NCBI GenBank assembly: GCA_035651635.1
Contig: DASRFK010000152.1
Location: 19,505-83,504, forward strand
Reading direction: 5' to 3'
Source: Verrucomicrobiia bacterium
GTDB lineage: Bacteria; Verrucomicrobiota; Verrucomicrobiia; Limisphaerales; UBA8199
Length of the DNA: 64,000 nucleotides
Shown: piece by piece, positions 1 to 51,545 of the stretch
Numbering within the stretch: the stretch's first letter is position 1
Layout of the letters: the number at the start of each line of letters is the position of its first letter
Notes under the pieces: model-generated
What the model was told of the DNA's origin: nothing
Database searches by the model: none
The model's input: only the letters and a program-made list of their open reading frames with translations
Translations under genes and position numbers: made by a program

Positions 1-345
1 ATTGCAGCGATAGAAGTCGTCACCTTTGCCCGGCGCGGTCATTTTGACCCATCGGGCAAAATCCTCTTTCTCACCTTTCGGTTTTTGAGTGAAAAGGTTG
101 TATGCGATGCGAAGAGTCATCTCGCCTCTTTTGTGGAGGTCCTCAATCACGGCGTAATCCTCGGGGTAATTCTGAAAGCCGCCCCCCGCGTCAATAATAC
201 TCGTGAGTCCAAGACGATTTAGCTCGCGCATGAAGTGGCGCGTCGAATTCCTCTGGTATTCGGGTGGCAGCTTTGGCCCCTTAGCCAATGTTGAATAAAG
301 GATGTTCGCATTGGGGCGTGCAATCAGAAGTCCTGTAGGATTCCT
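1..345 (-). pseudogene. 5'-truncated amidohydrolase (Amidohydro_3/YtcJ-like) paralog fragment; 3' part runs off the left window edge
   Basis: Minus-strand translation gives NPTGLLIARPNANILYSTLAKGPKLPPEYQRNSTRHFMRELNRLGLTSIIDAGGGFQNYPEDYAVIEDLHKRGEMTLRIAYNLFTQKPKGEKEDF..GKGDDFYRCN. This is colinear with residues ~182-280 of the intact amidohydrolase at 36266..38143. The N-terminal ~180 codons are absent and there is no start codon. Confidence 0.6.
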
Positions 346-784
346 GCGCGGCCGGCGATGTGGCTCCACAGCAGTCTTCCACAACGTAAATGTTGTAGCC
401 TGCCCCGAGCATTTCAATCGTTGGCCAAGTGACGCAAACTTCGGTCCACAGGCCCGTCATGACTATATTCTTGCGCCCGGTGGCCTCAATAGCTTTGCGG
501 AATTCCTGGGAGTCCCAAGAGTTCATTGAGGTACGTTCAACCACGGGTTGGCCGGGGAAAACGTCCAACAACTGCGGCCAGACGTAGCCGCTAAATGACT
601 CGGTTTCCACAGCGGTCAGGACCGCAGGCACGTTGAATTCCTTCGCGACCTTGGCAATAAGCGTGACGTTGTTGATGAGTGTGGCGCGATCCGCATTCGC
701 CACGCCGAAAAGCATCTGCGGCTGATGGTCTATGAATACAACTGCGGAATCAGCAGGGGTGTAGAGTTTATTATATTGATTCAT
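281..784 (-). pseudogene. isochorismatase-family hydrolase, 3'-truncated and fused out of frame to the amidohydrolase fragment
   Basis: 167-aa ORF, by eye roughly 80% identical to the first ~148 aa of the 240-aa paralog at 40918..41640 (MNQY..FIDHQPQMLFGVANADRAT..CCGATSP.AQE). After AQE it diverges into unrelated residues because the reading frame enters the amidohydrolase fragment. Confidence 0.6.
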
Positions 785-1064
785 TTGTATTTTCCTTTTG
801 TTGTTTTGGTTAGGAACTCGAGCAAATCTGTGTTTACCGTCTCCGCTTCAGTCGTGGCATCCCATGTCGAAAGCCCGGATAGCTTTTCAGTCCGCTTTTT
901 GAGCGACTTTCCAGTTAAATAACCGGAATTGAAGTTGTATCAGGCGCGCGGAATTTGAAAATGAACAATGGAAGGAAAGAGTTTTCCTTCTAAAGTAGGA
1001 GGCGAGGCGGAAAACGGACTAAATGATCCGGCTGGAAAAAGGATTTACGTATCGAAATTTGCTT

Positions 1065-1697
1065 TCAGAGACGAAGCAATCCCCGGCGGTTTGCCACGGC
1101 GATTGCTTCGGTGCGGCTCAAAACATTTAACTTCTTGAATACCGCCTGGACGTGGCTTTTCACCGTTACCTCAGAAATATCGAGTGCTGCGCCAATGAGT
1201 TTGTTTGGCTTCCCTTCCGCAAGCAGTTTCAAAACCTCGCTCTCACGCGGCGAGAGTTCTTCCCCCGGAAGTCGTTCAGCAAGTTTTGCGGCGATGGCGG
1301 CCGGAACGAATGTCCGACCGGCATGAACTTCACGAATGCACTGGAATAATTCTTCGCGCCTTACATCTTTTAGGAGATACGACTTTGCGCCAGCTCGCAT
1401 TCCGCGATAAATGTCCTCGTCGCCGTCAAATGTGGTAAGAACAATAACTCGGGCGTTTGGTTCGGCAGCGCGGATTTCGTAAATGGCATTCACGCCGTCC
1501 AGTTCCGGCATCCGCAAATCCATCAGCGTAACATCCGGCCTGTGTTTTTTCCAAAGTTCAACCGCCTTACGGCCGTCACCGGTTTCGGCCACCACGTCCA
1601 TATCTTTCTCTTGTTTGATGATTGCAACCAAGCCATCACGAACGACCGTATGATCGTCGGCGACTAAAACACGGATCGCTTTTTTTGCTCTATTCAA
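1065..1697 (-). CDS. NarL/FixJ-family response regulator (receiver + LuxR-type HTH)
   Basis: 210 aa. Receiver motifs VLVADDH and DVTLMDLRMPELDG. C-terminal GerE/LuxR HTH LSPRESEVLKLLAEGKPNKLIGAALDISEVTVKSHV. Overlaps the upstream kinase gene by 8 nt. Confidence 0.9.
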   Translation of the reverse strand: MNRAKKAIRVLVADDHTVVRDGLVAIIKQEKDMDVVAETGDGRKAVELWKKHRPDVTLMDLRMPELDGVNAIYEIRAAEPNARVIVLTTFDGDEDIYRGMRAGAKSYLLKDVRREELFQCIREVHAGRTFVPAAIAAKLAERLPGEELSPRESEVLKLLAEGKPNKLIGAALDISEVTVKSHVQAVFKKLNVLSRTEAIAVANRRGLLRL

Positions 1698-4593
1698 TTC
1701 CTTTTTCCGGCTTTAGCGCGGATCGTTGTTTCAACACAACGAGAATTTCAGTTCCGACACTTTGCTTTGTGCGAATTATGAACTCTCCGCCCATCCGGTC
1801 AACCCGTTCCTTCATGCCGATCAAACCAAAACCGTCATGCTCTTTCTGCGGATCAAAGCCGCGCCCGTCGTCCACAAGGAGAAGCTGAATCCTATCTGCA
1901 CCAATGTTCAATGTTGCCTTGAAATTCCGGGCGTCCGCGTGTTTGACAGCGTTGGTGAGAGCCTCTTGGGTGATGCGCAACAAATCCTCTTCGTAGTCAG
2001 ACGGCATGGACGCCTCATCGCCTTCTGCTTGGAATTCTGCGTTAAGATTCGTGCCTTCCGCCATGCGTTTGAGCAAATCGTCCAAGGCCAAAAATAATTT
2101 GCCGGCGCGAAGCGAACGAGGGCGCAGCGCCCGAACTGACCGGCGGGCTTCTCCAAGGCTTGACCTTGCAAGGTCGCTTGCCCGCTCAATCCGATTCGCT
2201 GCTTCGGCAAGGTTGCCCTGCACCGTCGCGCCTTTTGCCGCCTCCAGTTGCATGATGACACCGGTGAATCCCTGCGCCAGCGTGTCGTGAATGTCGCGCG
2301 CCATGCGATTTCGCTCCGCGATCACGGCGGATTCGCGGCTCTCCGCTGAAAAACGAGTCAACTGCATTAGCAGCATGGCTTGATTTGCCAGTGCGTGGGC
2401 CAGTTCCAATTCGTCGGCGCTAAACACGCGCTTTTGGGTAAAACGAATGGAGATGACTGCATCAACCCGGCCGGAAATTGACATCGGGACGATAAGGATA
2501 GTTATGACGCCAAGAGAAACCAAACGTTCTTGCCATGAGAAAAATGGTAATTCGCGAATGTCTTCGATCACGCCGGGCTTGCCCGTTCGGACAACCTCAG
2601 GCCATCCCCAGAATTCCTCCATTGGCAAGGTAAGAGGGATCCCGGCAAGAACCAGGTCGGATTTCGTCACGAATCTGCCATCCTCGAAAGAAAACTGAAA
2701 ACCAATCAAGTTGTTGACCTCGCGCTGCCACACGCTACAGCTATGTGCCCCTAACTGTGTAGTGATAGTCCGCAATACATGCTCCACTAGGCGGTCGGGG
2801 GAAGCTTCCATCGCCAATGCGTCCATCGTGCTTTTGAGCGCCTCGACCTGACCTCGGGCAAATTTTTCCGAAGCGCGGAGCGATTCTGCTGCCTGGGTTC
2901 GTTCCGTAACGTCCATCAACGTACCGATATATTCTAAATTGCCCAATTCATCCCTGGCGGCGCGGGCAACCATTTGGACCCATTTAACCGTGCCATCCGG
3001 CAGCAAAAGTCGATGTTCATATTCAAGATCTTTGCCTTCCTGCAGTGGGCTCCGGAGTGTCTCGACTAAGGTTCCGATATCATCCGGATGAATCCGCTGG
3101 CGGGCAAATTCCGACGTCGGCTTGACGCTTGGATCGATTCCATAAATGCGAAACATTTCGGCAGACCAAAGGACTTCGCCACTGGCAGGCTTCCATGAAA
3201 AGCTTCCCGTGCGACTCAGCCTTTGGGCTTCAGTAAGGTAAGCTTCACTTTTCTGTAGTGCTTCTTGGGCCTTCACTCGTTCGGTGACATCCATCACCGT
3301 TCCCATTAGCTTCAACTTCCCCTCGTCATCTCTCACGGGTTGGGAAATTGCTTCTATGTTTTTGCGGGTGCCATCCGGGAGGATGAAAATGTATTTGATC
3401 GGCCGTGGTTCGCCGGTCTCAAAGCTATCACGAAGACCACGCTCGACCGCTTCGCGATCCTCCGGACGCAACAGTTCCCGAAACTCGCTGTATTGCGGAA
3501 AAGGCGGCGGGTCAGGAAATCCAAAGATGCGGCAGGTCTCAACCGAACATTCCGTGTTCCCGGTTAGATAATCCAAAACCCAGCTCCCGGTCTTCGTCAA
3601 CCGCTGACCTTCGGCAAGATTTCTTTCGCTTCGTCGCAAACGCTTTTCGAGAAGTTTCTGCTCCGTGATGTCCATGACGGCGCCGACAAACTCAAGTTGG
3701 CCGTCGGCCAATTTTTCGGGTTTTGCAATCACGTGGACATATTTGATGAAGCCATCGGGCATGATTAGTCGATGCTCGAAATCGAAGCTCTTTTGGCTCA
3801 GGGAAGCCTCGTCCAATTGCTGCTTTACGAAGCTGAGATCGTCTTTGTGAATGCGGGCGAAAACGCTATCGAGGTTTGGCTTGCTCAATTTGTCAAAGCC
3901 AAGAATACAAAAGGTCTCGTCTGACCAGTAGAGCTCACCAGTCGTTACATTCCAACCAAAACTTCCCGTAGCGCTTAGGTGTTGGGCCTCGGCGAGGTAT
4001 GCTTTGCTTCGCCGAAGTTCATCAAGCGCGAGACTTAAGTCCTTTGTCCGCTCCGCAACCTGTCCTTCAAGAAGCGAGTTGTTGTGGCGAAGGGAAACTT
4101 CCGCATTTTTCCTCTCAGTAATATCAACGAGCGTGCCGATGAAACGAACCGCTTCACCGCTCGGCCCCAAAAAAGCTTGCCCACGCGCGGCAACCCACCC
4201 CTCTTTGCCATCATCTGGATTTATGATTCGATACTCGGTCTCGTAGCGTCCGGCGTTTACACCCTTCAGTGCTTCAAGCACCAAATTGTTGACTCTCTCC
4301 CGGTCGTCTGGGTGGACACATCGGAGAAAGATTTCGTGTGTAACTTCGGTTTCAAGGGGTAATCCAAAAATTTCCTTCAAACGGGGAGACCAATCGCCTG
4401 CGTTTTTCAAGTCCGTCGAATTCCAAACCCAGAGACCAACTCGGCCCGCTTCAATAGCGAGCCGCAATCGTTGATCACTCTCAACGAGTTGTTGATTGAG
4501 TCGCTTAAGTTGTTCAGTTTGCGCAACCAGATCGGCATTTAGAGCTTGGGGCTCATTGCTCGCATTGGCAGATTTGTCAGGTGTCCCATTCAT
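1690..4593 (-). CDS. multi-PAS/GAF sensor histidine kinase (HisKA_3 + HATPase_c, NarX-type)
   Basis: Long ORF; likely start MNGTPDKS at 4593 (the ORF track extends to 4650). N-terminal coiled coil. Four PAS-like repeats, each preceded by AEAQ(R/H)LS.TGS(F/W). A GAF-like segment, an H-box ERNRMARDIHDTLAQGFTG, and an ATPase with DDGRGF and GFGLIGMKERV. Confidence 0.9.
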   Translation of the reverse strand: MNGTPDKSANASNEPQALNADLVAQTEQLKRLNQQLVESDQRLRLAIEAGRVGLWVWNSTDLKNAGDWSPRLKEIFGLPLETEVTHEIFLRCVHPDDRERVNNLVLEALKGVNAGRYETEYRIINPDDGKEGWVAARGQAFLGPSGEAVRFIGTLVDITERKNAEVSLRHNNSLLEGQVAERTKDLSLALDELRRSKAYLAEAQHLSATGSFGWNVTTGELYWSDETFCILGFDKLSKPNLDSVFARIHKDDLSFVKQQLDEASLSQKSFDFEHRLIMPDGFIKYVHVIAKPEKLADGQLEFVGAVMDITEQKLLEKRLRRSERNLAEGQRLTKTGSWVLDYLTGNTECSVETCRIFGFPDPPPFPQYSEFRELLRPEDREAVERGLRDSFETGEPRPIKYIFILPDGTRKNIEAISQPVRDDEGKLKLMGTVMDVTERVKAQEALQKSEAYLTEAQRLSRTGSFSWKPASGEVLWSAEMFRIYGIDPSVKPTSEFARQRIHPDDIGTLVETLRSPLQEGKDLEYEHRLLLPDGTVKWVQMVARAARDELGNLEYIGTLMDVTERTQAAESLRASEKFARGQVEALKSTMDALAMEASPDRLVEHVLRTITTQLGAHSCSVWQREVNNLIGFQFSFEDGRFVTKSDLVLAGIPLTLPMEEFWGWPEVVRTGKPGVIEDIRELPFFSWQERLVSLGVITILIVPMSISGRVDAVISIRFTQKRVFSADELELAHALANQAMLLMQLTRFSAESRESAVIAERNRMARDIHDTLAQGFTGVIMQLEAAKGATVQGNLAEAANRIERASDLARSSLGEARRSVRALRPRSLRAGKLFLALDDLLKRMAEGTNLNAEFQAEGDEASMPSDYEEDLLRITQEALTNAVKHADARNFKATLNIGADRIQLLLVDDGRGFDPQKEHDGFGLIGMKERVDRMGGEFIIRTKQSVGTEILVVLKQRSALKPEKGIE

Positions 4594-4743
4594 TTCGAGT
4601 GACCGAGCGAAACTGAATGGAGAATCGCGCTGCAGCCATAAAAAAAGCAAGCGCCTTTATCCAAGAACCAATTACCAACCCAATTTTCAGTTGAAACGAC
4701 ATCCAACATGCGGAGTCAGTTTCGCTGATTAGGGCCGTGATAA

Positions 4744-5186
4744 GCGCGAATTAAAACGTAGAGGGCATGGAATCGAGGAACATGTAGAGCACTGCAATTT
4801 TGCCATCGTGAACGATGATTACATCCAAGCCAGTGTAGTCGGGTGCCTCGCCGCGCGGGCCCGAACCCCAGGCGAGGCGACCGGCGGCATTCTGGAGAGC
4901 CTGAGGCTGGTCGTGGGCAAGAAACCAAATGGGAAATGTCAGATCATTTCGTCTTCGGTTTCGAAACTAGGAAGACTCGCATGCTTGCGAGCTTTCCGTT
5001 TTCGATCGTGAAGATAGCGTCCTGTCGGAGGGATGGATCGCTGAGGTATTCATAATTCTCCCTGAACCGCACCACTTGGTACGCCGGAGGCGAATAAGAA
5101 TGTTCGCTTGAGCTTGTCATGTCCTGAGCCATCACTTGTGTTGCCAATGACATGAAAAGCACAAAGAAGCCTGTCGACAGCTTCAT
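4744..5186 (-). pseudogene. patch of gene fragments: alginate-export-type porin N-terminus followed by NTF2/SnoaL-like C-terminal pieces
   Basis: ORF 4944..5186 has a signal peptide plus YQVVRFRENYEYLSDPSLRQD, matching YKMVRFDEDYSCLTNPANRSD of the porin at 38712..40115. It then switches to AIFTIENGKLASMRVF. A second start-less frame (4744..~4940) reads ..PDYTGLDVIIVHDGKIAVLYMFLDS, which is typical of an NTF2-like C-terminus. Confidence 0.35.
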
Positions 5187-5687
5187 TGGCTTTTAGTGTT
5201 CTAGCCTAGTCGCCGACGAAGCCTTTGTTGAGGCATCGTCGGCGATACTCTTTTATTTGGTGAGTTCCGGCCGACCGATAGCATGCGCGAAGGGTCGGGC
5301 TGAGGCTTCGCAGCCTCGGTAGTTCCACCTTGTATAACCCAACTGGAAATAATCGACCCTCAACCGAAGAGTTCTGGTCTTGGCCGCAAGGATTTACGAA
5401 CACAGCCTGGGTCGCTTCCTCGGCGTCGGGTGGCCGGTTGCCGTCGGGTCGAGTGCCGGAGGTCATAGCTAGTTTGGTTCGTAATGTGAGGGCAGCTGCC
5501 AACACCTTTGCTCACAGCGTTCAGGTGGTTTCAGACGCGAAACATGATTCAATATGAAACCCAATTCACACCCTTGCCGACTGGACGTTCTTTCAGAAAA
5601 TGTCCGGCGAAGAAATGGGCATGGCCCGCCCTCTCCGTGAAATGGAGCGTTATACTAGACTGCAACATGGCCTGAGCTGGCCATGTG

Positions 5688-6344
5688 CTAGTGCTTCTGT
5701 CCGCCAGAAGTGAGGAGCTGCAATTCCCACGCGAGGCTGGTACCGGTTGAACCGCCGTGCACCAAACTGATCTCGGCCACGGCCCCCACCGTCGCTTCCC
5801 GGGCCCAATCACGTTGCCACTCGCTCATGACACCCATCCAAGTGAGGGGCACTGCGCCAGCCTGGACGAGGCGCTGAATTGCACGTTCGTGAGCTTCGAC
5901 GCTGACACCGCCTGATGCGTCCGTAACAACATAAACGTCGTAGCCGTCGCCCAGCGCATGGATCGCCGGAAATGCGAGACAAATCTCCGTCCACAGCGCA
6001 GCGAAAACAATTTTCTTGCGGCCAGTCTTTTTCACAAGATCGACCACGCGTGAATCCTCCCAGGTATTGAGCGTCGTTCGATCAATCGGCACCTGATCGG
6101 GGAACACGGCTTGAAGCGCCTGCGGAAGGTTGCCGCCACGATCCTTGACGACGGTAGTGAGGATCGTGGGCACCTTAAACGCTTTCGCCGCCTTCGCGAG
6201 TCCGATGGTGTTGTTGAGAATCATTGTCGGATCCATGTTTCGCGTGTTGGCGAACTGGAACGGCTGGTGGTCGATCAAGATGAGGACGGAATTCTCTGGA
6301 GTGAGCAGCGCGTCGAGACCAACTTTGCTTTCTTTTGTATTCAT
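5688..6344 (-). CDS. isochorismatase-family hydrolase
   Basis: 218 aa. VLILIDHQPFQF, KKIVFAALWTEICLAFPAIHALGDGYDVYVVTDASGG (conserved Cys). Confidence 0.85.
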   Translation of the reverse strand: MNTKESKVGLDALLTPENSVLILIDHQPFQFANTRNMDPTMILNNTIGLAKAAKAFKVPTILTTVVKDRGGNLPQALQAVFPDQVPIDRTTLNTWEDSRVVDLVKKTGRKKIVFAALWTEICLAFPAIHALGDGYDVYVVTDASGGVSVEAHERAIQRLVQAGAVPLTWMGVMSEWQRDWAREATVGAVAEISLVHGGSTGTSLAWELQLLTSGGQKH

Positions 6345-12242: not shown

Positions 12243-12872
12243 ATGGAATCCCAGAATACGAAACGATACCAGGAGCGACTTACGCCGGACAACGCCGCTC
12301 TAATTCTCGTCGACCATCAAGTTGGGCTGTTCACTGGAGTCAGAGATATCCCTGTAGCGGAGTTGAAGCATAATGTCGTCGCACTAGCGAAAGCGGCCAA
12401 AGTGTTGGGCGTTCCGACCATCGTGACCGCTACCTCGCCGGAGATGTGGGGTCCAACGATTCCGGAGCTGGCGGAGGCCTTGCCCGGGGTCCAGATCATT
12501 GCGCGAACGACGGTCAATGCATTTGATGAGCCCCGGTTTGCTAAAGCTGTGGAAACTGCCGGTCGCAAGAAGCTCGTTATCGCGGGTGTTTCAACCGAGG
12601 TGTGTTTGGCTCTTCCAGCCATCCATGCGACGGGAATGGGTTACGATGTGTATGGCGTGATTGACGCCTCCGGCACTTTCAGCGAAACCAAGCGCATTAC
12701 GGGGCTGCTGCGCATGGTTCAAGCGGGCGTGATCGTCATCGACTATTGCACCGTCGCCGTAGAAATGCTCAAGGATAACTCGAGTCCAAAGGCCGGCGAT
12801 CTGTATGCGGCCCTCGATATGCCTTTTGCCGGTCTGGTCGGACAATTAGCCGGAGCATTCGCCAAGCATTGA
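12243..12872 (+). CDS. isochorismatase-family hydrolase
   Basis: 209 aa. ALILVDHQVGLF, KKLVIAGVSTEVCLALPAIHATGMGYDVYGVIDASG. Confidence 0.85.
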   Translation: MESQNTKRYQERLTPDNAALILVDHQVGLFTGVRDIPVAELKHNVVALAKAAKVLGVPTIVTATSPEMWGPTIPELAEALPGVQIIARTTVNAFDEPRFAKAVETAGRKKLVIAGVSTEVCLALPAIHATGMGYDVYGVIDASGTFSETKRITGLLRMVQAGVIVIDYCTVAVEMLKDNSSPKAGDLYAALDMPFAGLVGQLAGAFAKH

Positions 12873-35097: not shown

Positions 35098-35611
35098 TTT
35101 GGTCCTTATTAAGTTCTTCCAGTGCTGTGAGAATTCCGTTCGCGCCGGGGTTGATCCCCACGGGAGAAACGTAACTCCAATAGATAACACCCGACTCATT
35201 GATCACGAATAGCGCCCGCTCGGTGGTTCCGTCAGGTTCACGATACACACCATAAAGACGCGCCACCGCGCCCTTCGGTTCGAAGTCGGCGAGCAGCGGG
35301 AAATGCAACTTGCGATCCCGGCTGAAGGCCGTATGACACCAGGCACCGTCAACGGAGATGCCAAGCAGTTCCGCTCCCAACTTCTTGAACTCCGGGAGAA
35401 TTTCATTGTAGAGCCCCATCTGGTCACCGCAAACAGGACTCCAATCGGCCGGGTAAAACGCGAGCACGACCGGTTGTCCACGGAAATCGCTCAATTTGAC
35501 CGCTTGATCCGGCGTGCTCTTCAGGCTGAAATCTGGAGCCACAGCCCCAGCTGGTAGCGCCGCAGATTTGAGGCTTCCCGGCTGTTGTCGTGGTGTGGTT
35601 TCATTATTCAT
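35087..35611 (-). CDS. peroxiredoxin (AhpC/TSA family)
   Basis: APDFSLKSTPDQAVKLSDFRGQPVVLAFYPADWSPVCGDQ. AGGAGG RBS upstream. Confidence 0.85.
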   Translation of the reverse strand: MNNETTPRQQPGSLKSAALPAGAVAPDFSLKSTPDQAVKLSDFRGQPVVLAFYPADWSPVCGDQMGLYNEILPEFKKLGAELLGISVDGAWCHTAFSRDRKLHFPLLADFEPKGAVARLYGVYREPDGTTERALFVINESGVIYWSYVSPVGINPGANGILTALEELNKDQNEK

Positions 35612-35740
35612 AACGGTCCTCCTACTTCAGTTTCATAAATCTTGGGCTGAGGTCTGGCTTTGTTAATCGTGGATTTCATCCCTGTTTAGCTTTTTGCCGG
35701 GTTATTTTGGTTTCGGGCTCTTGTTCGGTTGGATTCGCTT

Positions 35741-36238
35741 TCAGGCTGACCTCAACTCGCTTCCCATTCCGGCATTTCGCGAGGTTGATTGCTCCGCTTT
35801 TGCAAATAACTTGGCATCGAGGGATATTCTGCCGCCACCCATGAACGCGAGCGTCAAGACCACGAGCGTATACAAAATCGCAAGTTGCGGATCGCGGCCT
35901 GCCAGAAGGTTTTGAAGAATGGCGCCACTCAGCGCGCCAAATAGCAATATTGCGTTAATCCGCGTGAACAATCCAATGATGATGAACAAGGAGCAGATGA
36001 ACTGCACCAGCGTTGCCGCAACTGCCGAAGCGAGGGGTGCGGGGAAATGCATTCCAGCAACTTCCTCGGCCAATTTCCACGGTGTTCCGTTCTGGAGATA
36101 GGCAATCCATCCCTCCAATTTGTGCCAGCCGTGAATGTAGAAAATCATCAAGCCCGCCGACACACGAAGCAGAAAATGTCCCCACGTTTCGAGCTTATTG
36201 CCCGGTTCCACGCTAAGCGATTTTCTGAAGAGATCCAT
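35741..36238 (-). CDS. DoxX-family membrane protein
   Basis: 165 aa. FLLRVSAGLMIFYIHGWHKL..FICSLFIIIGLFTR..GGGRISLD. Starts 28 nt downstream of the amidohydrolase stop. Confidence 0.75.
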   Translation of the reverse strand: MDLFRKSLSVEPGNKLETWGHFLLRVSAGLMIFYIHGWHKLEGWIAYLQNGTPWKLAEEVAGMHFPAPLASAVAATLVQFICSLFIIIGLFTRINAILLFGALSGAILQNLLAGRDPQLAILYTLVVLTLAFMGGGRISLDAKLFAKAEQSTSRNAGMGSELRSA

Positions 36239-36265
36239 AATTGGTGCGCGAATGTTTCGCGGTGC

Positions 36266-38143
36266 TCAGAAAGCGAAGCAGTCGCAGCCCGATCCGAAGA
36301 AGCCGGCATAGCGATTGCGAGCGGCCTCGATGCCCGCGAGAAGTTGATGGCCCGCATGGACGCAGCCATGATGATGGCATTTGGCATCGTGCTGATGCTG
36401 CGGCATCGGTACACCTGCTCGCGCAGCCTTGCGAACGTCCAACGGCGCGCCGTAACCGCCGAACACCTTCACCGGCGACCATTCCGGCAAAACCGGAATT
36501 GGGGGTGGCGTGTGCGAAGCGAATTCCTCGGTCGCGTGAACGATCTTTCCATCAACAATCGTAAGCACGGACTCAATGCTCTTGATCTGCTCCTCGGGCA
36601 CTGACAGATAGTCGTCAGTGAGCACAACCAGGTCCGCCAATTGCCCCGGAGCAAGCGCGCCTTTCTTGCCGCTTTCGCCGGAAAACCAACTGCTGCCTTT
36701 GGTGTAAAGCATCAACGCTTCTTCCCGGCTCAGACAATTTGCCTCGGAATAGAGCGCAGCGCCGCCAACGGTTTTCCCGGCCACGAGCCAGAACAGGGAA
36801 AGCCAGGGGTTGTAGCTGGCCACGCGTGTTGCATCTGTGCCCGCCCCCACGGGAATGCCCAAATCGAGCATTCTCCGAACTGGCGGCGTCCGTTCCGCAG
36901 CCTTACTGCCATAGCGATCCAGAAAGTACTCTCCTTGGAAGGCCATGCGGTCCTGGATCGCAATCCCGCCTCCCAACGCTTTGACTCGTTCGAGGCTGCG
37001 GTCCGAGATGGTTTCGCAATGATCGAAGAACCAATTGGTTCCTTTGAAAGGGATTTCACGATTGACCTCCTCGAACACGTTTAACATCCGGGAGATGCTT
37101 TCGTCATAGGTGGCGTGAATACGGAACGGCCATCTATTTGTAGCCAAGAGCGAAACGACCTCCTTCAAGTCCTTTTCCAGGTTGGACGGAAGGTCGGGCC
37201 GGGGTTCCAGGAAATCCTCGAAATCTGCCGCCGAATAAACCAGCATTTCTCCCGCCCCATTGCAGCGATAGAAATCGTCGCCCTTGCCCGGCTTCGTCAG
37301 TTTCATGCAACGCAGGAAATCATCCTTCTCCTGGTTGGGTTTTTGCGTGAAAATATTATAAGCCATGCGAACGGTCATCTCTCCTCGCTCGTGCAGTTCT
37401 TCGATGATCGCATAGTCGTCCGGGTAGATTTGAGAGCCGCCGCCCGCGTCCACCAAGCTGGTGAGGCCAAGGCGGTTGAGCTCGCGCATGAAATGGCGGG
37501 AAGAGTTCATCTGCTGTTCAGGCGGCAGCTTGGGTTGCTTGCCGACGGTAGCGTAAAGAATTCCGGCATTGGGGCGGGCGATGAGGAGTCCGGTGGGGTT
37601 GCCTTTTCCGTCGCGCTGGATTTCACCCGCCGGTGGATTGGGAGTGTCTTTGGTGTAGCCGCAGGCCCGCAGCGCGGCTTTGTTCAACATGCCGCGGCAA
37701 TACAAGTGCAGGATGAAGACAGGCGTTTCGGGGGAGACGGCGTTGATTTCATCAAGCGTGGGCATACGCCGTTCGGCGAATTGGAACTCGCTCCAACCGC
37801 CGATGACGCGGACCCATTGGCCGGGCGGTGTCCGCTGCGCCTGCTCTTTGAGCATGCGCAAACCGTCCGCGAGGGAGGGAACACCGTCCCAGCGAAGCTC
37901 GAGGTTGTAGCTAAGGCCCCCGCGGATGATATGCATGTGGGAATCGTTGAGTCCGGGAATCACGCGCCGACCTTGTAAATCGATGACCTTCGTGTTCGGT
38001 CCTCGTTGATATTCCTCAGCGTCGTCCACGCCAACGATACGTCCGTCTTTGATGGCAAGATTACTTGCTTCGCGGTTTTTCGCATCTAGCGTGGTGATGC
38101 GTCCGTTGCGGAGTATGAGATCGGGAACAAGTGATGTATTCAT
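36266..38143 (-). CDS. metal-dependent amidohydrolase (Amidohydro_3/YtcJ-like) with Cys/His-rich C-terminal tail
   Basis: Start MNTSLVPDLILRNGRITTLD (ATGA overlap with the upstream gene). PGLNDSHMHIIRGG, IHATYDESI, GAGTDATRV. Tail HQHDAKCHHHGCVHAGH..GSGCDCFAF. Confidence 0.8.
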   Translation of the reverse strand: MNTSLVPDLILRNGRITTLDAKNREASNLAIKDGRIVGVDDAEEYQRGPNTKVIDLQGRRVIPGLNDSHMHIIRGGLSYNLELRWDGVPSLADGLRMLKEQAQRTPPGQWVRVIGGWSEFQFAERRMPTLDEINAVSPETPVFILHLYCRGMLNKAALRACGYTKDTPNPPAGEIQRDGKGNPTGLLIARPNAGILYATVGKQPKLPPEQQMNSSRHFMRELNRLGLTSLVDAGGGSQIYPDDYAIIEELHERGEMTVRMAYNIFTQKPNQEKDDFLRCMKLTKPGKGDDFYRCNGAGEMLVYSAADFEDFLEPRPDLPSNLEKDLKEVVSLLATNRWPFRIHATYDESISRMLNVFEEVNREIPFKGTNWFFDHCETISDRSLERVKALGGGIAIQDRMAFQGEYFLDRYGSKAAERTPPVRRMLDLGIPVGAGTDATRVASYNPWLSLFWLVAGKTVGGAALYSEANCLSREEALMLYTKGSSWFSGESGKKGALAPGQLADLVVLTDDYLSVPEEQIKSIESVLTIVDGKIVHATEEFASHTPPPIPVLPEWSPVKVFGGYGAPLDVRKAARAGVPMPQHQHDAKCHHHGCVHAGHQLLAGIEAARNRYAGFFGSGCDCFAF

Positions 38144-38709
38144 ATAGATGTCCTTTCTTTTTCGGAATGTAACCAACCTTGGAGGGCTCTCGTGATAAGT
38201 GGCATGACGACCCACGTCAGGAGCGCCACCACGAAGGCGTTGAAGACAATGTTGTTCAGGAGAAAATTCCAATTGTGAAGCAAGCGACCGAGCGTCAATG
38301 CCAGGAGCATGACCACTGGAACTACTCCGAGGTAAGTTGCGATTGCCATTTTCCACCGGGGTGGAGGCGCATGGTTGTTCTGGCGAAAGAACGCTTCGAG
38401 GCCGTGGAGTTCGCGAGCCTCAGGCTCGCCGTCCGAGAGCGGGGCCACTCGCTTTTTCCAGTCGAGGTATAATGGCGAAGCATAGAAGGCATCCCGCTCA
38501 GCCGCATTGGCAAACGAGCGAAGGATTCCATATTCCGTCGAGCTTGAGCCAGGTGGCGGAACCAGCATGGCCGCGCCCTGCACGCCACGGCGAGTCAGGG
38601 AGTGGGCAAAAAATTCCTTTAACGCGGCTTGGAACTCCTGCTCGTAGCCAGGCTTGATACGCCGGGTTATGGCAACGTGAATGGGTTGTGGACCAGCGCT
38701 CGCAATCAT
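38140..38709 (-). CDS. ABM-like (antibiotic biosynthesis monooxygenase fold) domain fused to two C-terminal TM helices
   Basis: Start MIASAGPQPIHVAITRRIKPGYEQEFQ. ..PPPRWKMAIATYLGVVPVV... Paralog at 50780..51301. Confidence 0.6.
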   Translation of the reverse strand: MIASAGPQPIHVAITRRIKPGYEQEFQAALKEFFAHSLTRRGVQGAAMLVPPPGSSSTEYGILRSFANAAERDAFYASPLYLDWKKRVAPLSDGEPEARELHGLEAFFRQNNHAPPPRWKMAIATYLGVVPVVMLLALTLGRLLHNWNFLLNNIVFNAFVVALLTWVVMPLITRALQGWLHSEKERTSI

Positions 38710-38711
38710 AT

Positions 38712-40115
38712 TCAGAACAGAAAACTGATTGTTGCTGAGACGTAATCGACGTCCTTGCCGCCGGCTTCGTGAACATAGGTCCCGGTGAGGAAATGGACGT
38801 AAGAGGCCTGGACAGTAATATGGCGTTGAAGCTGCCACGTTACGTTCGCGTCCAGGGCTGTGCCGACATAACTAGGCGAGTCGCTCCGCGCCGGGATCGC
38901 CACGAACCCAGGCACCCCATAAACCGCATCGTGTCGGGAATACCTCCAAAACCAGTTAGCGCCTCCGTCAATCGTCAGGGTCTTGGTCGGCTTAACGCTG
39001 AGGTTCGGATGGACGCCAATAATGTTCTGTGGTCGGATGAGGCTGGCGTCGTTGAAATACCCCGATTTGAAGTAGAGCGCGTCGAAAGTTTCCAGTTGTC
39101 CATCCTTTTGGTCATGGTCGCCGCTGGTGATTCCCGTCTTGAGCCCTAGTCTTGGCTGCCAGGTTGCATCGAACGTGTAACCACCATCAATTGCCGCTGT
39201 CCACGCCAGAATCGAATCACGTCCGAAGCTTCCCACCTGCAGGACTTGCTCCGCGTCCCAATCCCAATGATGCCAGGCGCCGAACTCTCGTGCGCCAAAC
39301 GAATGCCTAAGTTCGTCCCCCGAACCGGAGGCGTAAGTGGCATGTTCGTTGCGAATGCCGAAGTAGTAGAGATCCAAACCCGCGCTGTGCGGGGCGTCAA
39401 AGTAATGCGTAGCGTAAAGCCCCCAAAACGTGGTTGAATGATCCTCCGCGTCAATATGGCCCGAATCCTTAACGGGCCGCGTCAGAAAAGCGGTGAAATT
39501 CCAAAATGGCCGCGAGTAAAGCGCCTCAAGTCCGTCAAATCGGAATGGAATGTTTGGAGCGGAGCGTGTTGCAACGAGTCGTCCTGCGCCGAAACTCATG
39601 CCGAAGCGTCCCACCCGCAACGTAAGACGCTCGTCGTCCGTCAGGTAGGGGACGACATCAACAAACGCGAACTGCAGATCGATGGGGTTCTGCTGAACGG
39701 GGGGAGGTGGATGGGACTCGCCTGCAACGATCCCGGAGATACCCTCGGCGAAGAAGCGGACTCGCTCCCCTAAATGCACATCGGTCAGCAGCGTGACGCG
39801 TTGCAACAAATAGGAGTCGGGGCCCAAGCCATGGATTCCAAAATTAGGATCGTAATTACCCTCGAAGCGTTCCCGTAACTCACCCCCAAGGCTCACATAC
39901 CATAAAGGGTCGTCCTCTCGAAGAGGGATATATTTGGCGAGGTCAAACCAATCCGAGCGGTTGGCCGGGTTCGTCAAACAGGAATAATCCTCGTCAAATC
40001 GCACCATTTTGTAAGTAGGGGATTGCAAGGGAATTTCCGCGCCCGGCTTCAATTCCTGAGCCGATAGAACCACCGGCATCACGGCGAATACGGAAATGAG
40101 CAGGGCGGGACGCAT
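38712..40115 (-). CDS. alginate-export-family (AlgE-like) outer-membrane beta-barrel porin
   Basis: 467 aa. Signal peptide, SLGGELRERFEGNYD, alternating aromatic/hydrophilic strands, C-terminal ..ATISFLF. Confidence 0.7.
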   Translation of the reverse strand: MRPALLISVFAVMPVVLSAQELKPGAEIPLQSPTYKMVRFDEDYSCLTNPANRSDWFDLAKYIPLREDDPLWYVSLGGELRERFEGNYDPNFGIHGLGPDSYLLQRVTLLTDVHLGERVRFFAEGISGIVAGESHPPPPVQQNPIDLQFAFVDVVPYLTDDERLTLRVGRFGMSFGAGRLVATRSAPNIPFRFDGLEALYSRPFWNFTAFLTRPVKDSGHIDAEDHSTTFWGLYATHYFDAPHSAGLDLYYFGIRNEHATYASGSGDELRHSFGAREFGAWHHWDWDAEQVLQVGSFGRDSILAWTAAIDGGYTFDATWQPRLGLKTGITSGDHDQKDGQLETFDALYFKSGYFNDASLIRPQNIIGVHPNLSVKPTKTLTIDGGANWFWRYSRHDAVYGVPGFVAIPARSDSPSYVGTALDANVTWQLQRHITVQASYVHFLTGTYVHEAGGKDVDYVSATISFLF

Positions 40116-40118
40116 CGT

Positions 40119-40850
40119 TCATTTTGCGAGAGATGCGAAAGGGGTTGTGTCCCTTTTCTGCAGTTCTACGGTTGCCGAATCAATGCCTTGGCCCACCTGC
40201 TTCACGGCCTCATCGAAAAAGGACGGTCCAGCTTCAATCACCACTGATTCGATGCTGAATTTTGGGGCAAGGCCCTGCGCCTGGAGACGTTTCTCGGTGT
40301 CGTAGGCTTCAAGCATCTCCTCGGCAAAGGCGCGATCGCCCTCTCCCACATCAATCGCAGTGTTGCCTTCGTCCCGGATGACCGGTGCCCAGGCAACGTG
40401 CTTTGCTTTGAGCCGGACGGCTTCGCGTGCCGCAATGCGTCCGACGATTCGCAGCGTGTCGAGCGACAAGTCATTTTCCTCGCCCAGGCCAATCACCATG
40501 AACTGCCTCGCGGGGATTGAACCCTTGGGAGGGTTCAATAGGAATGTTTCGCCCGTTTCACCTGCAAACTCTCCGCGATTGCGCAACGAGGAGAGAATGC
40601 CGCCAAGCTTTTCGTCCGTTTCCTTGGCAGCGCCCTGGTAGGTGTCGCCGGTCTGTTTATGTTTGAAAAGGCAGATGATTTGGAGGTCTGTTGGCTCCAT
40701 ATATGGGCCGACCATTTTGATGGAAAGCGTGATGCCAAGTGGTTTGGCGGGAAAAACGTTTTCCTTTGGCGTGGTCGTGGTGTCGGCAGCCGAGGCGTTG
40801 ATCACCAGTCCGGCGCAGACGACGCTGAAAAAATGAAATTTGTTTTTCAT
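40119..40850 (-). CDS. secreted protein of unknown function (possible peptidase-M17 N-terminal-like fold)
   Basis: 243 aa. Signal peptide MKNKFHFFSVVCAGLVINASA. FMVIGLGEENDLSLDTLRIVGRIAAREAVRLKAKHVAWAP loosely recalls the LAP N-terminal domain. Confidence 0.3.
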   Translation of the reverse strand: MKNKFHFFSVVCAGLVINASAADTTTTPKENVFPAKPLGITLSIKMVGPYMEPTDLQIICLFKHKQTGDTYQGAAKETDEKLGGILSSLRNRGEFAGETGETFLLNPPKGSIPARQFMVIGLGEENDLSLDTLRIVGRIAAREAVRLKAKHVAWAPVIRDEGNTAIDVGEGDRAFAEEMLEAYDTEKRLQAQGLAPKFSIESVVIEAGPSFFDEAVKQVGQGIDSATVELQKRDTTPFASLAK

Positions 40851-40917
40851 ACGAAAAATGAAAGCAACAGGAGTTACGAAGACTTAACTCCGTTAACTCC
40901 TGTTTAACTTGGTGGTT

Positions 40918-41640
40918 TCAGTGAGCGGCGACAGGAGTCATGCCGCGATTCGAAGTGTGTCCGTCGCCGGTAACTTTCTTTGGCACGATCTGTGGCTTTT
41001 GAGCGGTTTGGGGTGCGTGGTGGACCATCGTATAGGCGTATTCAACGCCAACGCCGTAAGCGCCCGCTTGGGGTCGGAGGAGTTTCATAAGCGCGTCGTA
41101 ATGCTCCTTGTTCTTCCAATCGCGCTGCCATTCAAGTAAGGCGCCAATCGTGGTCAACCGCACTGCGCCGGCTTGCACCATGCGCGAAAGGGCCGCCTCT
41201 TGTGCGTCAGGTGAAGTCGCACCACAGCAATCCTGAACGACATAAACGTTATAACCTGCTCCGAGCATTTCGATCGTAGGCCAGGTGACGCAAACCTCGG
41301 TCCAGAGGCCGGTCATGATGATGTTCTTGCGCCCGGTGGCCTCGATGGCTTTGCGGAACTCCATTGAGTCCCACGAGTTCATCGAGCTGCGTTCAATCAC
41401 AGGTTGGCCCGGAAAAATGTCCAACAACTGCGGCCAGACATAACCGCTGAAGGATTCGGTCTCCACAGAAGTGAGCACTGTGGGCACCTTGAATTCCTTG
41501 GCGACTTTAGCCAACAAGGTTACGTTGTTGATCATCGTGGCGCGATCTGCGTTGGCAACGCCGAAGAGCATCTGCGGCTGAAAGTCGATGAATACAATTG
41601 CAGAATCTTCGGGCGTGTAGGGTCTGTGGTATTGATTCAT
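40918..41640 (-). CDS. isochorismatase-family hydrolase (full-length paralog of 281..784)
   Basis: 240 aa. IVFIDFQPQM, IIMTGLWTEVCVTWPTIEMLGAGYNVYVVQDCCGA. Confidence 0.85.
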   Translation of the reverse strand: MNQYHRPYTPEDSAIVFIDFQPQMLFGVANADRATMINNVTLLAKVAKEFKVPTVLTSVETESFSGYVWPQLLDIFPGQPVIERSSMNSWDSMEFRKAIEATGRKNIIMTGLWTEVCVTWPTIEMLGAGYNVYVVQDCCGATSPDAQEAALSRMVQAGAVRLTTIGALLEWQRDWKNKEHYDALMKLLRPQAGAYGVGVEYAYTMVHHAPQTAQKPQIVPKKVTGDGHTSNRGMTPVAAH

Positions 41641-41641
41641 A

Positions 41642-41833
41642 TTACGTTTCCTTTCTTTTTGTTTTTATTTGTTTGAATGTTAGTTGAGGTCGAACAACAG
41701 AAAATGCGCGTCCCTTTCGGACGCAAAATGAGGCTTCCTTTACTTCATCGGTTGACACTCCGTCGCCGGGGGAAAGCTTTTCGCCATTCACGTCCAAATC
41801 TCCTTCGATGAGTTGAATCCATGCGTGTTCCAT
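41642..41833 (-). pseudogene. pirin-family C-terminal stub
   Basis: MEHAWIQLIEGDLDVNGEKLSPGDGVSTDEV matches the pirin/YhhW C-terminal pattern (R.AW.Q...G...vNG..L..GDG). The ORF-track N-terminus (41834..41884) is a translation of the conserved promoter-cassette leader, so it is unlikely to be coding. Confidence 0.4.
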
Positions 41834-41888
41834 TGTTTTACTGAGGCTTGTCGGCAATTCTCCAACGCCCCTAGGTCTGATCACCGAA

Positions 41889-42016
41889 TGCTAGAGCCAT
41901 GCCACAGCGTGGAATGGCCGCAATTAGCGCGATTCACCCAGAAAGCCTCGTGCCTGAGAGGTTTTTTACGAACCATTAACTCGCGACTCTTCAAGAATTC
42001 GCGAAGTTTCACGAAA
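41889..42016 (-). promoter_or_regulatory. type I sigma-54 promoter cassette (upstream TCGCGA boxes + -24/-12) facing the isochorismatase-porin-amidohydrolase operon
   Basis: Minus-strand TGGCATggctcTAGCA at 41889..41904 (GG-N10-GC). TCGCGA/TCACGA boxes at 41981..42014, ~90 bp upstream. The whole segment is colinear with the cassettes at 42923.., 61561.. and 62651... Confidence 0.7.
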
Positions 42017-42086
42017 TTGGGGGCGGTCATGCCGCGTGCTTTCAACTCCGGCAGCGTCGCTTGCAGGGTTGGTGCTGTGGGCAAGT

Positions 42087-42102
42087 TGGTACAACTCTAG
42101 CG
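42087..42102 (+). promoter_or_regulatory. sigma-54-like promoter facing the opposite way from the same upstream boxes
   Basis: TGGTACaactcTAGCG; 15 of 17 identical to the cassette promoter TTGGCACAACTCTAGCA at 62651..62666. GG-N10-GC is preserved, but the -24 C is changed to T. Confidence 0.45.
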
Positions 42103-42117
42103 AGGGGATGGTCTATT

Positions 42118-42873
42118 ATGAGCACTTCATCTAATGGTATTGATCAGCCACCTGAAATGCGTGATAACGATTTTTTCACAGACATCCCGAGTGGTCACAA
42201 GTTGCCCTTGGGTTGGGTAGAGTGCGCTTGGCAGCCCGAGGTCACCACCAAACAGCAAGCGCTCTGCAACGAACCAGGCCGCCTCGTGGCGACAAACGGA
42301 GGAACCCCTGCGATGGCCTACAAGAAAGGATTTACTCGTCGGCGTGGAACCATGAAGGCGATTATTTTCTACGACGATGTCGCCTCCGCAGCCAGAGCGG
42401 TCGTTATACTACGCCGTTGCATGTCTTTGGCCAGAGGCGGTGCCCGATGGGATATCAAGCCATGGTGTGTCGGGGTTCTGAAATTGCCCTTGGCCGCCGA
42501 CGAGGCGCTTATTGAATCGATTGATGCCGACGTAATCGTGTTTGCAGCTCTTCGTGCGCCTACACTCCCCAAATCTCTCAAGGAATGGCTGCAATGGTGG
42601 AATCTTCGCCGTCAGTCAAGGGAACCGGCCGTTGTGATTACTCGCGCATATTATGATGCCAGGCGCAGCGGATTTGATCATGAATTGCTGAGTTTTGCCG
42701 CACAAAATGAGCTGGACTTGATCGTTGAAGCGAACCCGCCAGTTGGGGATCGTCTGGCCGATGAGCTCGTCCAACCCAAAATGTCGCTTCCGCAGGCCGC
42801 CATGGATGAAGCAACGATGGGTGCGGCCGTTACGCCCCATTATTCATATCGAAATTGGGGCATTAACGAGTGA
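42118..42873 (+). CDS. hypothetical protein
   Basis: ORF with GAGGGGA 9 nt before the ATG at 42118. Alternative start MKAIIFYDDVASAARAV at 42352. I recognise no domain. Confidence 0.5.
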   Translation: MSTSSNGIDQPPEMRDNDFFTDIPSGHKLPLGWVECAWQPEVTTKQQALCNEPGRLVATNGGTPAMAYKKGFTRRRGTMKAIIFYDDVASAARAVVILRRCMSLARGGARWDIKPWCVGVLKLPLAADEALIESIDADVIVFAALRAPTLPKSLKEWLQWWNLRRQSREPAVVITRAYYDARRSGFDHELLSFAAQNELDLIVEANPPVGDRLADELVQPKMSLPQAAMDEATMGAAVTPHYSYRNWGINE

Positions 42874-50779: not shown

Positions 50780-51301
50780 ATGCCAATTCACGTCGTGATC
50801 ACTCGTCGTGTTAAAATTGGTCGCGAAGGCGAGTTCCAAGCGGCTTTGCTGGATTTTTTCCAAAAGTCGTTTTCCCAGGACGGCGTTTTGGGGGCCGACA
50901 TGCTCACACCGCCGCCAGGCTCAAACTCTCGCGAATTCGGCCTCCTGCGGACGTTCGCCGACGAGAAAGCACGTGACGCATTTTTCGAGTCCGAAATGTT
51001 CAAAGCTTGGGAGGCGAAGGTGAGAACGTTGACAGAAGGTGAACCGATCCATCGGGAATTGCATGGACTCGAAGCGTGGTTTCGTTCCTCGAGTCCACCA
51101 CCCCGATGGAAAATGTTCATCGCTACATTCTTGGGGGTCTTGCCGGTCGTCACAGTTCTGAATGTGACTCTTGGCCCGGTAATTTTGCCGTGGAATTTTC
51201 TTCTGAGGACTGCGGTCTTTAATGGCTGCATGATCGCGCTCCTGACCTGGGCCATCATGCCAATCATGACGCGGGTCCTTCACAATTGGTTGCGCTCCTA
51301 A
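50780..51301 (+). CDS. ABM-like domain + 2-TM protein (paralog of 38140..38709)
   Basis: MPIHVVITRRVKIGREGEFQ..PPPRWKMFIATFLGVLPVV. Confidence 0.6.
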   Translation: MPIHVVITRRVKIGREGEFQAALLDFFQKSFSQDGVLGADMLTPPPGSNSREFGLLRTFADEKARDAFFESEMFKAWEAKVRTLTEGEPIHRELHGLEAWFRSSSPPPRWKMFIATFLGVLPVVTVLNVTLGPVILPWNFLLRTAVFNGCMIALLTWAIMPIMTRVLHNWLRS

Positions 51302-51545
51302 CAAAGGAAAATGTCATGAGCTTAAAAACTTCTCCTGACTCCCTATTGCCCGAAAAGACCAGTTTTCAGGTTTCGGGCGAAAAATGTAAACGGGCGTTAG
51401 AACCACAAGGAAATCGCATCTCCTATGAAAGGAACAGCTTCGCAACCAGAGCACGGCCTCGTGCTGGGCAGCGGAGCCGCCGGCGCTCGATGCCGCCGGC
51501 GCCGGATGGACTGAACGTCTAGCGCAAAGGCATCGGGAACTGTCC

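Follow-up and report, generated by a model that had tools for sequence, protein, structure and literature searches.

The window, by which we mean the whole 64,000-nucleotide stretch of contig DASRFK010000152.1 analyzed here, begins inside a damaged copy of a verrucomicrobial operon, in which an isochorismatase-family gene runs out of frame into a YtcJ-type amidohydrolase gene. The features of this left locus are listed below; negative coordinates refer to sequence left of the window.

-994 to -1419, minus strand: DoxX gene, which follows the amidohydrolase remnant as it follows the amidohydrolase gene at the intact locus
1 to 342, continuing left to -987, minus strand: 5'-truncated gene for a YtcJ-type amidohydrolase (Amidohydro_3), codons 182-624 only
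342 to 345, minus strand: fusion joint, a 4-nt microhomology (GGAA in gene sense, TTCC on the plus strand) common to both pre-deletion sequences
281 to 784, minus strand: isochorismatase-family gene truncated at its 3' end; 148 native codons (784..341) are followed by 19 out-of-frame codons and a stop at 281-283
811 to 930, minus strand: alpha/beta-hydrolase remnant, the last ~41 codons, with a frameshift near 855 (tblastn, tblastx, and nucleotide matches)
954 to 1064, minus strand: intergenic sequence that follows the stop codon of the response regulator; many relatives conserve 954-1004 downstream of their regulator gene
1065 to 1697, minus strand: intact gene for a NarL/LuxR-type response regulator
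1690 to 4650, minus strand: intact gene for a PAS-GAF-HisKA_3 histidine kinase, which forms with the regulator a pair found before the operon in relatives
5016 to 5198, minus strand: stranded fragment upstream of the kinase, comprising the last 12 nt of a secreted-protein gene and porin codons 1-57
5537 to 5677, minus strand: ~47 codons from the C-terminal end of a second porin type, interrupted by a stop codon (tblastx E 3e-6)
5688 to 6344, minus strand: separate isochorismatase-family gene

Farther along the window lies a second copy of the operon with an intact core.

35741 to 41640, minus strand: intact operon core, six genes
35741 to 36238, minus strand: DoxX gene (Pfam DoxX)
36266 to 38143, minus strand: amidohydrolase gene, 625 aa (Pfam Amidohydro_3)
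38140 to 38838, minus strand: ABM membrane-protein gene (Pfam ABM; PF27539 Y2318_C in relatives)
38712 to 40115, minus strand: porin gene (Pfam Alginate_exp)
40119 to 40850, minus strand: secreted-protein gene (Pfam Peptidase_M17_N-like)
40918 to 41640, minus strand: isochorismatase-like gene, 240 aa (Pfam Isochorismatase)
41683 to 41839, minus strand: decayed C-terminal remnant of a pirin gene, upstream of the intact copy (E 3e-13; frameshift near 41730)

This operon is widespread in soil Verrucomicrobiota and is conserved yet plastic. A search covering one genome per species yielded 80 loci, the best of them in soil Verrucomicrobiota MAGs; these and other related loci are designated by L numbers. 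L109 shows the fullest gene order, which L100 and L096 share as far as their contigs extend or with gaps: histidine kinase, NarL-type regulator, alpha/beta hydrolase, pirin, isochorismatase-like protein, secreted protein, porin, ABM, amidohydrolase, and DoxX; other loci lack the hydrolase, pirin, secreted-protein, or porin gene. Compared with this arrangement, the left locus of the window keeps the regulator pair, the gene order, and the orientation but lacks 3.5 kb of the core as well as the alpha/beta-hydrolase gene, whereas the 36-41 kb locus keeps the whole structural core but has no adjacent regulator pair and a decayed pirin gene. We found no paper in the literature that mentions this gene combination.

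The joint was located by blastn of window positions 1-1100 against positions 35500-42500. Window 342..807 aligned with 41198..41665 at 80.2% identity (E 1e-119), window 1..342 aligned without gaps with 37259..37600 at 72.5% identity (E 2.5e-52), and the two alignments, one on the isochorismatase side and one on the amidohydrolase side, meet at nt 342. On the minus strand, codon 148 of the isochorismatase-family gene meets codon 182 of the amidohydrolase gene there, in a different reading frame. The original prediction had placed a minus-strand junction at about nt 340, between an isochorismatase-like frame (ORF 281..784) that tracks the paralog at 40918..41640 up to ..CCGATSPAAQE and a second frame (NPTGLLIARPN...) that is colinear with the amidohydrolase at 36266..38143 from residue ~182 onward. 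Our alignments reproduce both frames and show colinearity on both sides of the joint, and the predicted positions, ~340 at the joint and ~41197 and ~37600 at the intact locus, are right to within two bases. The missing segment measures ~3.5 kb on the related locus L175, and the matching points at the 36-41 kb locus lie ~3.6 kb apart, as predicted. By comparison with the many relatives that keep the intact order, the isochorismatase 3' end, the secreted protein, the porin, the ABM/Y2318_C membrane protein, and the amidohydrolase 5' end are absent.

The two sides of the joint share the tetranucleotide GGAA. In the amidohydrolase genes of the closest relatives, the sequence at this position is ..GCTG[GGAA]TCCTACAGG, the part after the repeat beginning TCC, and on the isochorismatase side it is ..GCGCA[GGAA]GCC, as read from orthologs only 78-80% identical in DNA rather than from the true ancestor. 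The window has ..GCGCA[GGAA]TCCTACAGG, with one copy of the repeat retained. The homology of the closest amidohydrolase relatives to the window (L083, L084, L085, and L175; 93.4-93.5% nucleotide identity over 1.73-1.76 kb with at most one gap) begins exactly at nt 344. By our own calculation, a microhomology of at least 4 nt is expected at ~1.5% of random joints. Gene sequence runs up to both edges of the joint, where we found no extra bases, transposon end, integrase gene, or long repeat. A retained GGAA copy, no extra bases, and no element ends form the signature of a homology-independent deletion. With no extended homology between the two sides, the intervening DNA absent, a short repeat of which one copy is kept, and no mobile-element end, the joint is a true deletion-type fusion of a 3'-truncated isochorismatase-family gene and a 5'-truncated amidohydrolase gene.

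We give scarcely any credence to an assembly chimera, in which the contig would join reads from two places or strains. The 167-aa product of the fused frame is found on contig k141_1075983 of ENA assembly ERZ27279688 (91 kb, built with k=141, and the source of 9.7 kb of sequence left of the window) and on Logan contig SRR5581483_1353, both 100% identical to the window, and the gene sets of JGI/IMG, ENA, and Logan all list exactly the fused 167-aa and 406-aa products. A chimera would be compatible with the fact that all assemblies carrying the joint are identical in DNA and trace to one sample lineage, and with the absence of the junction 24-mer from the JGI metagenome contigs in an exact scan, but it does not fit what the assembler needs: the two sides share only 4 nt, far below the k-1 overlap (140 nt for the k=141 contig) on which de Bruijn assembly depends, so reads that span the joint must exist, and no repeat that could mislead an assembler lies at the joint. 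A regulator-guided protein scan, aimed at further carriers of the joint, yielded relatives of at most 88% identity. The regulator proteins P0241 and P0242, nearly identical to that of the window and considered as independent carriers, proved to come from the window's gene itself in further assemblies of that sample. A JGI contig from another sample (3300067032) encodes a regulator 99% identical in protein and likewise has a gap of ~282 nt to the next gene, so at least the neighboring hydrolase scar has been seen independently, which also argues against a chimera.

Both genes at the joint are truncated relative to full-length orthologs, and the amidohydrolase gene has lost residues needed for activity. 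The isochorismatase stub retains 148 codons, corresponding to positions 1-157 of the 175 in the PF00857 profile, and is 92-94% identical in amino acids to orthologs of 224-240 aa; the last 19 codons of its 167-aa ORF are read from amidohydrolase sequence and are unrelated to the isochorismatase paralog. The amidohydrolase remnant retains 443 of 624 codons (PF07969 profile positions 134-472 of 472) in a frame that stays open to a normal stop at -987 on the source contig, and it aligns with the full-length genes of L083 and L084 at 93.5% nucleotide identity without gaps. The rest of the amidohydrolase paralog that the original prediction had suggested looking for left of the window is thus recovered, followed by DoxX. 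The HxH metal motif, NDSHMHI in the intact copy, falls in the missing N-terminal third. HxH metal ligands are required for activity in the amidohydrolase superfamily, and a stub without them is predicted to be inactive, as it cannot be an active member of the superfamily. The isochorismatase stub lacks only the last part of the fold and has probably lost activity as well.

Several measures indicate that the deletion is recent. The two stubs contain no stop or frameshift in 443 + 148 codons and show no sign of relaxed selection. Between the amidohydrolase remnant and L083, dN is 0.015, dS is 0.34, and omega is 0.044, compared with an omega of 0.065 between the L083 and L084 amidohydrolases; against close metagenomic relatives, dN/dS of the remnant is 0.04-0.07. 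With L086 as the reference for polarity, 10 nonsynonymous and 25 synonymous changes fall on the window's branch, the corresponding ratios are 2:29 for L083 and 8:27 for L084, and neutral evolution would give ~3.4:1. The isochorismatase stub and the regulator show no excess of amino-acid change. Nearly all of the divergence thus accrued under selection, which, together with the absence of stops and frameshifts, points to a young deletion. The unaccelerated isochorismatase stub fits a recent event but may also reflect residual function. The 2- to 3-fold faster evolution of the amidohydrolase relative to GTDB orthologs, a candidate sign of relaxed selection, reflects a long branch common to the full-length genes of L083, L084, and L086, and dN/dS against GTDB relatives is uninformative as a test because synonymous sites are saturated.

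The intact 36-41 kb locus had been proposed as the parental arrangement, and the joint as a product of segmental duplication followed by a clean internal deletion. The deletion stands, but the duplication within the genome and the single clean event do not. If the 36-41 kb locus had been duplicated within this genome and one daughter copy had then lost 3.6 kb in a single internal deletion, the colinearity of the loci at both ends of the joint and the presence of DoxX after both would be explained, but multiple observations make this history highly unlikely. First, divergence at synonymous sites between the two in-genome copies has reached saturation (pS 0.75 for the amidohydrolase and 0.64 for the isochorismatase). 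Second, each copy has nearer relatives in other genomes than its counterpart in this one. The left amidohydrolase protein is 76-77% identical to the in-genome copy, 82-84% to proteins of several GTDB genomes, 91-97% to metagenomic proteins P0001-P0006, and 95-97% to the products of L083-type genes; in a neighbor-joining tree, the left copy clusters with L083/L084 and then L086 (200/200 bootstraps each), the 36-41 kb copy clusters with L024 (200/200 bootstraps), and the two copies are sisters in 0/200 bootstraps. Third, homology between the loci covers DoxX, the 3' two-thirds of the amidohydrolase gene, the 5' two-thirds of the isochorismatase gene, and 23 nt upstream, and nothing beyond. Fourth, only the left copy adjoins the kinase-regulator pair that is typical of the operon in relatives; the 36-41 kb copy has no adjacent pair. 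Mutual closest relatives, low synonymous divergence, and homologous flanks, by which a recent segmental duplication would be recognized, were all absent from this pair of loci. The 36-41 kb copy is an old separate lineage, a useful template for reading the scar and not its ancestor; either the copies parted well before the sampled lineages did, or one may have been acquired by transfer. The pair is a worked case showing that a similar copy elsewhere in a genome is not necessarily the parent.

The sequences upstream of the two isochorismatase genes also speak against an in-genome duplication. Window 811-930 matches residues 232-272 of the L003 hydrolase (tblastn E 1e-6), and the matching hydrolase precedes the isochorismatase gene in L003 and L027. 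With the frameshift near 855 taken into account (two-frame tblastx), LKSYPGFRHGMP and TTEAETVNTDLLEFL in the window correspond to LKTYKGFPHGMP and TTEAETINSDLLKFI in the hydrolase, and nucleotide-level similarity links window 812-910 to the 3' ends of the L109 and L096 hydrolase genes. The spacing between regulator and isochorismatase genes is 280 nt in the window compared to ~1.05 kb in L027, a loss of ~780 bp of hydrolase sequence. The original prediction had assigned the stretch at ~785-960 to a decayed pirin-like gene and had taken it as a sign that the duplication also covered the upstream gene. The pirin proteins of four relatives had no match in window 700-1100 (best E above 1); it is the alpha/beta-hydrolase C-terminus that matches, and a genuine pirin remnant occurs only at the 36-41 kb locus. 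The argument that the duplication extended upstream fails, as the upstream remnants derive from different, non-homologous genes, an alpha/beta hydrolase at the left locus and a pirin at the other.

The joint also does not stand alone. At least three further stumps lie within a 6-kb stretch of the left locus, and the joint is probably one step in a multi-step decay rather than a clean single event. The fragment at 5016-5198 is 83% identical in nucleotides to L083 1101-1283 and 84% identical in amino acids to residues 1-57 of the L083 porin, with a dN/dS of 0.10; it is of the alginate-export type, as is the porin in the closest relatives of the amidohydrolase remnant. The stump at 5537-5677, which begins 11 nt after the stop of the separate isochorismatase-family gene, matches the porin C-termini of L015, L016, L029, L007, L021, and L022. 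The stretches at 4651-5015 and 5199-5536 had no homolog among 175 loci and no Pfam match. In the sequence after the regulator gene, the predicted RNA fold was no better than those of shuffled sequences (z 0.11). A 37-nt piece at window 1025-1061, 3 nt after the regulator stop, recurs inverted at L175 1583-1619, the exact start of the truncated isochorismatase remnant (codons ~197-222) of that locus. Third-position GC content (GC3) in the left block is 48-56%, compared with 61-67% in neighboring genes; as a sign of horizontal transfer, base composition is no more than suggestive.

Stranded upstream of the kinase, porin codons 1-57 count against a simple deletion in one canonical operon.

A single deletion within one canonical operon leaves this porin 5' fragment unexplained. 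The fragment may be left over from another copy, or it may reflect a complex rearrangement in place of a simple internal deletion, of which we considered two versions. In the first, a segment extending from upstream of the kinase as far as porin codon 57 was duplicated in tandem before deletions occurred. In the second, a block containing the kinase, regulator, hydrolase stub, and isochorismatase codons 1-148 was inserted into an L083-type locus (secreted protein, porin, ABM, amidohydrolase, and DoxX), where it replaced the sequence from porin codon 58 to amidohydrolase codon 181, and the joint at 342-345 is one border of the insertion. The stranded porin fragment has the same orientation as the kinase and sits immediately upstream of it; both the fragment and the amidohydrolase-DoxX segment are nearest to the L083 clade, whereas the kinase-regulator pair has different nearest relatives; and at this locus neither the kinase and regulator genes nor the 5' part of the isochorismatase gene is present in the L083 clade. 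The 37-nt piece shared with the L175 junction and the low GC3 of the left block fit such a history as well. However, the gene order and orientation of the left locus are canonical, which comes free with deletions in cis but would be a matter of chance with an insertion, and both versions need as many events as independent deletions, or more. No relatives were detected, moreover, for the 365 nt that separate the porin fragment from the kinase. Divergence varies unevenly along the amidohydrolase-DoxX segment, with 2-22 mismatches per 150 nt, which points to homologous recombination among strains and weakens the argument from different nearest relatives, and all close relatives lie on short contigs of 5-7 kb. 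Overall, we regard a rearrangement of either version as unlikely.

L083, L084, L085, and L175 have the secreted protein, the porin, ABM, and a full 624-aa amidohydrolase, but their isochorismatase gene is not intact at the locus, where only codons ~197-222 are kept, so the exact pre-deletion state is seen in no genome examined.

The joint probably arose through ordinary pseudogene formation, by illegitimate recombination within an operon copy that bears several scars. We propose that homology-independent recombination at GGAA joined hydrolase codon 148 to amidohydrolase codon 182, that one copy of the repeat was kept, and that the ~3.5 kb between the two points was lost, probably by replication slippage or microhomology-mediated end joining. 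The out-of-frame joint would have left two dead stubs, a hydrolase without its last third and an amidohydrolase without its N-terminal HxH domain. The second, complete copy, from an anciently separate lineage, plausibly made the left copy dispensable, and the joint would then be one step in the stepwise decay of a left copy that carries several other truncation scars.

This reading has precedents. RecA-independent illegitimate recombination deletes DNA between short direct repeats in the manner of replication slippage, and such deletions were classically mapped in E. coli lacI. The joint in the window resembles them in that unrelated coding sequences meet at a 4-nt repeat, with one copy kept and several kilobases lost; it differs in that the isochorismatase-side repeat comes from orthologs and the mechanism is an inferred one. 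Pseudogene formation and the deletional decay of redundant genes have been described for host-restricted pathogens and for bacterial genomes generally. Here, too, genes are truncated, a catalytic motif is lost, an intact second copy is present in the genome, and further stumps lie nearby. By contrast, the host is a free-living soil verrucomicrobium rather than an organism with a reduced genome, and the remnants show no relaxed selection so far (omega 0.04-0.07).

A more far-reaching possibility is that an operon replacement is in progress, with the kinase-regulator pair controlling the distant copy in trans, or that the scars are those of a single complex rearrangement; we consider either quite unlikely. 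If replacement were true, the native structural genes would have been erased piecemeal after a foreign-lineage copy arrived and the native kinase-regulator pair would have been kept. If a single rearrangement were true, its trace would be the 37-nt piece, which occurs at junctions in two lineages.

Taken alone, the joint matters little: it is a well-resolved case of gene death at a 4-nt repeat, caught before the remnants decayed. Annotation pipelines call both stubs ordinary genes, a 167-aa 'isochorismatase' and a 406-aa 'amidohydrolase', and stubs called in this way inflate the functional inventories of metagenome-assembled genomes. The more interesting by-product is the operon itself, which is undescribed and strikingly plastic: it varies in its pirin, alpha/beta-hydrolase, porin, and secreted-protein genes, and several lineages have truncated copies.

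In the four metagenome contigs closest to the left amidohydrolase remnant (L083, L084, L085, and L175), the isochorismatase gene was mostly gone, with codons ~197-222 left adjoining a MarR gene and a SnoaL_4-like fragment. These contigs carry the nearest kin of the left copy, the decayed operon copy at the left edge of the window, and the same operon copy has therefore been truncated independently in sister lineages. Added evidence for frequent gene loss in the operon is provided by another related locus, L095, in which a pirin remnant comprising only residues 157-231 lies upstream of the isochorismatase gene, and the amidohydrolase gene directly follows the secreted-protein gene, without a porin or ABM gene between them.

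Divergence along the left copy was patchy. From -1386 (in the contig left of the window) to 344, comparison with L083 and L084 gave 2-22 mismatches per 150 nt, and the dense mismatch patch fell where L083 also differs from L084. This overlap suggests homologous recombination tracts among strains. Third-position GC was 48-56% across the kinase, regulator, amidohydrolase-remnant, and DoxX genes that make up the left block (within 1-4650 and leftward) and 61-67% in the intact operon copy (35741-41640) and the window's other genes. Should one of the two copies be a newcomer, the left block is by composition a likelier candidate than the intact copy.

Additional pieces lie in the spacer after the response-regulator gene and upstream of the histidine-kinase gene.

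Spacer pieces and porin fragments
954-1004, minus strand: conserved piece of ~47 nt downstream of the regulator gene, 79-90% in many relatives
1025-1061: 37-nt stretch, 3 nt past the regulator stop
5016-5198, minus strand: alginate-export-type porin fragment upstream of the histidine kinase, first 57 codons plus 12 nt of the 3' end of the preceding gene
5537-5677, minus strand: second porin type, C-terminal ~47 codons, internal stop

The 37-nt stretch has an inverted counterpart (89%) at L175 1583-1619, the exact junction at which the truncated isochorismatase remnant of L175 starts, and no further copies were found elsewhere in the contig; the pair may have been left by an ancient inversion or may represent a small repeat element. 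The 954-1004 piece, which contains a small hairpin (GAAGGAAAA..UUUCCUUC), is kept in many relatives irrespective of the identity of the next gene. The regulator spacer as a whole did not fold better than shuffled sequences.

The frame of the first porin fragment runs on as an 80-residue ORF ending at 4944, and the L083 clade contains the nearest relatives of both this fragment and the amidohydrolase remnant. The flanking stretches, 4651-5015 and 5199-5536, had no notable ORF, Pfam match, or relative among the 175 fetched loci. The second-type porin remnant starts 11 nt past the stop codon of a distinct isochorismatase-family gene, one of three solitary paralogs of operon genes.

Solitary paralogs
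5688-6344, minus strand: isochorismatase-family gene
12261-12842, plus strand: isochorismatase-family gene
50780-51316, plus strand: third ABM membrane-protein gene (56%)

Both solitary isochorismatase-family genes matched those of the operon at 35-40%.
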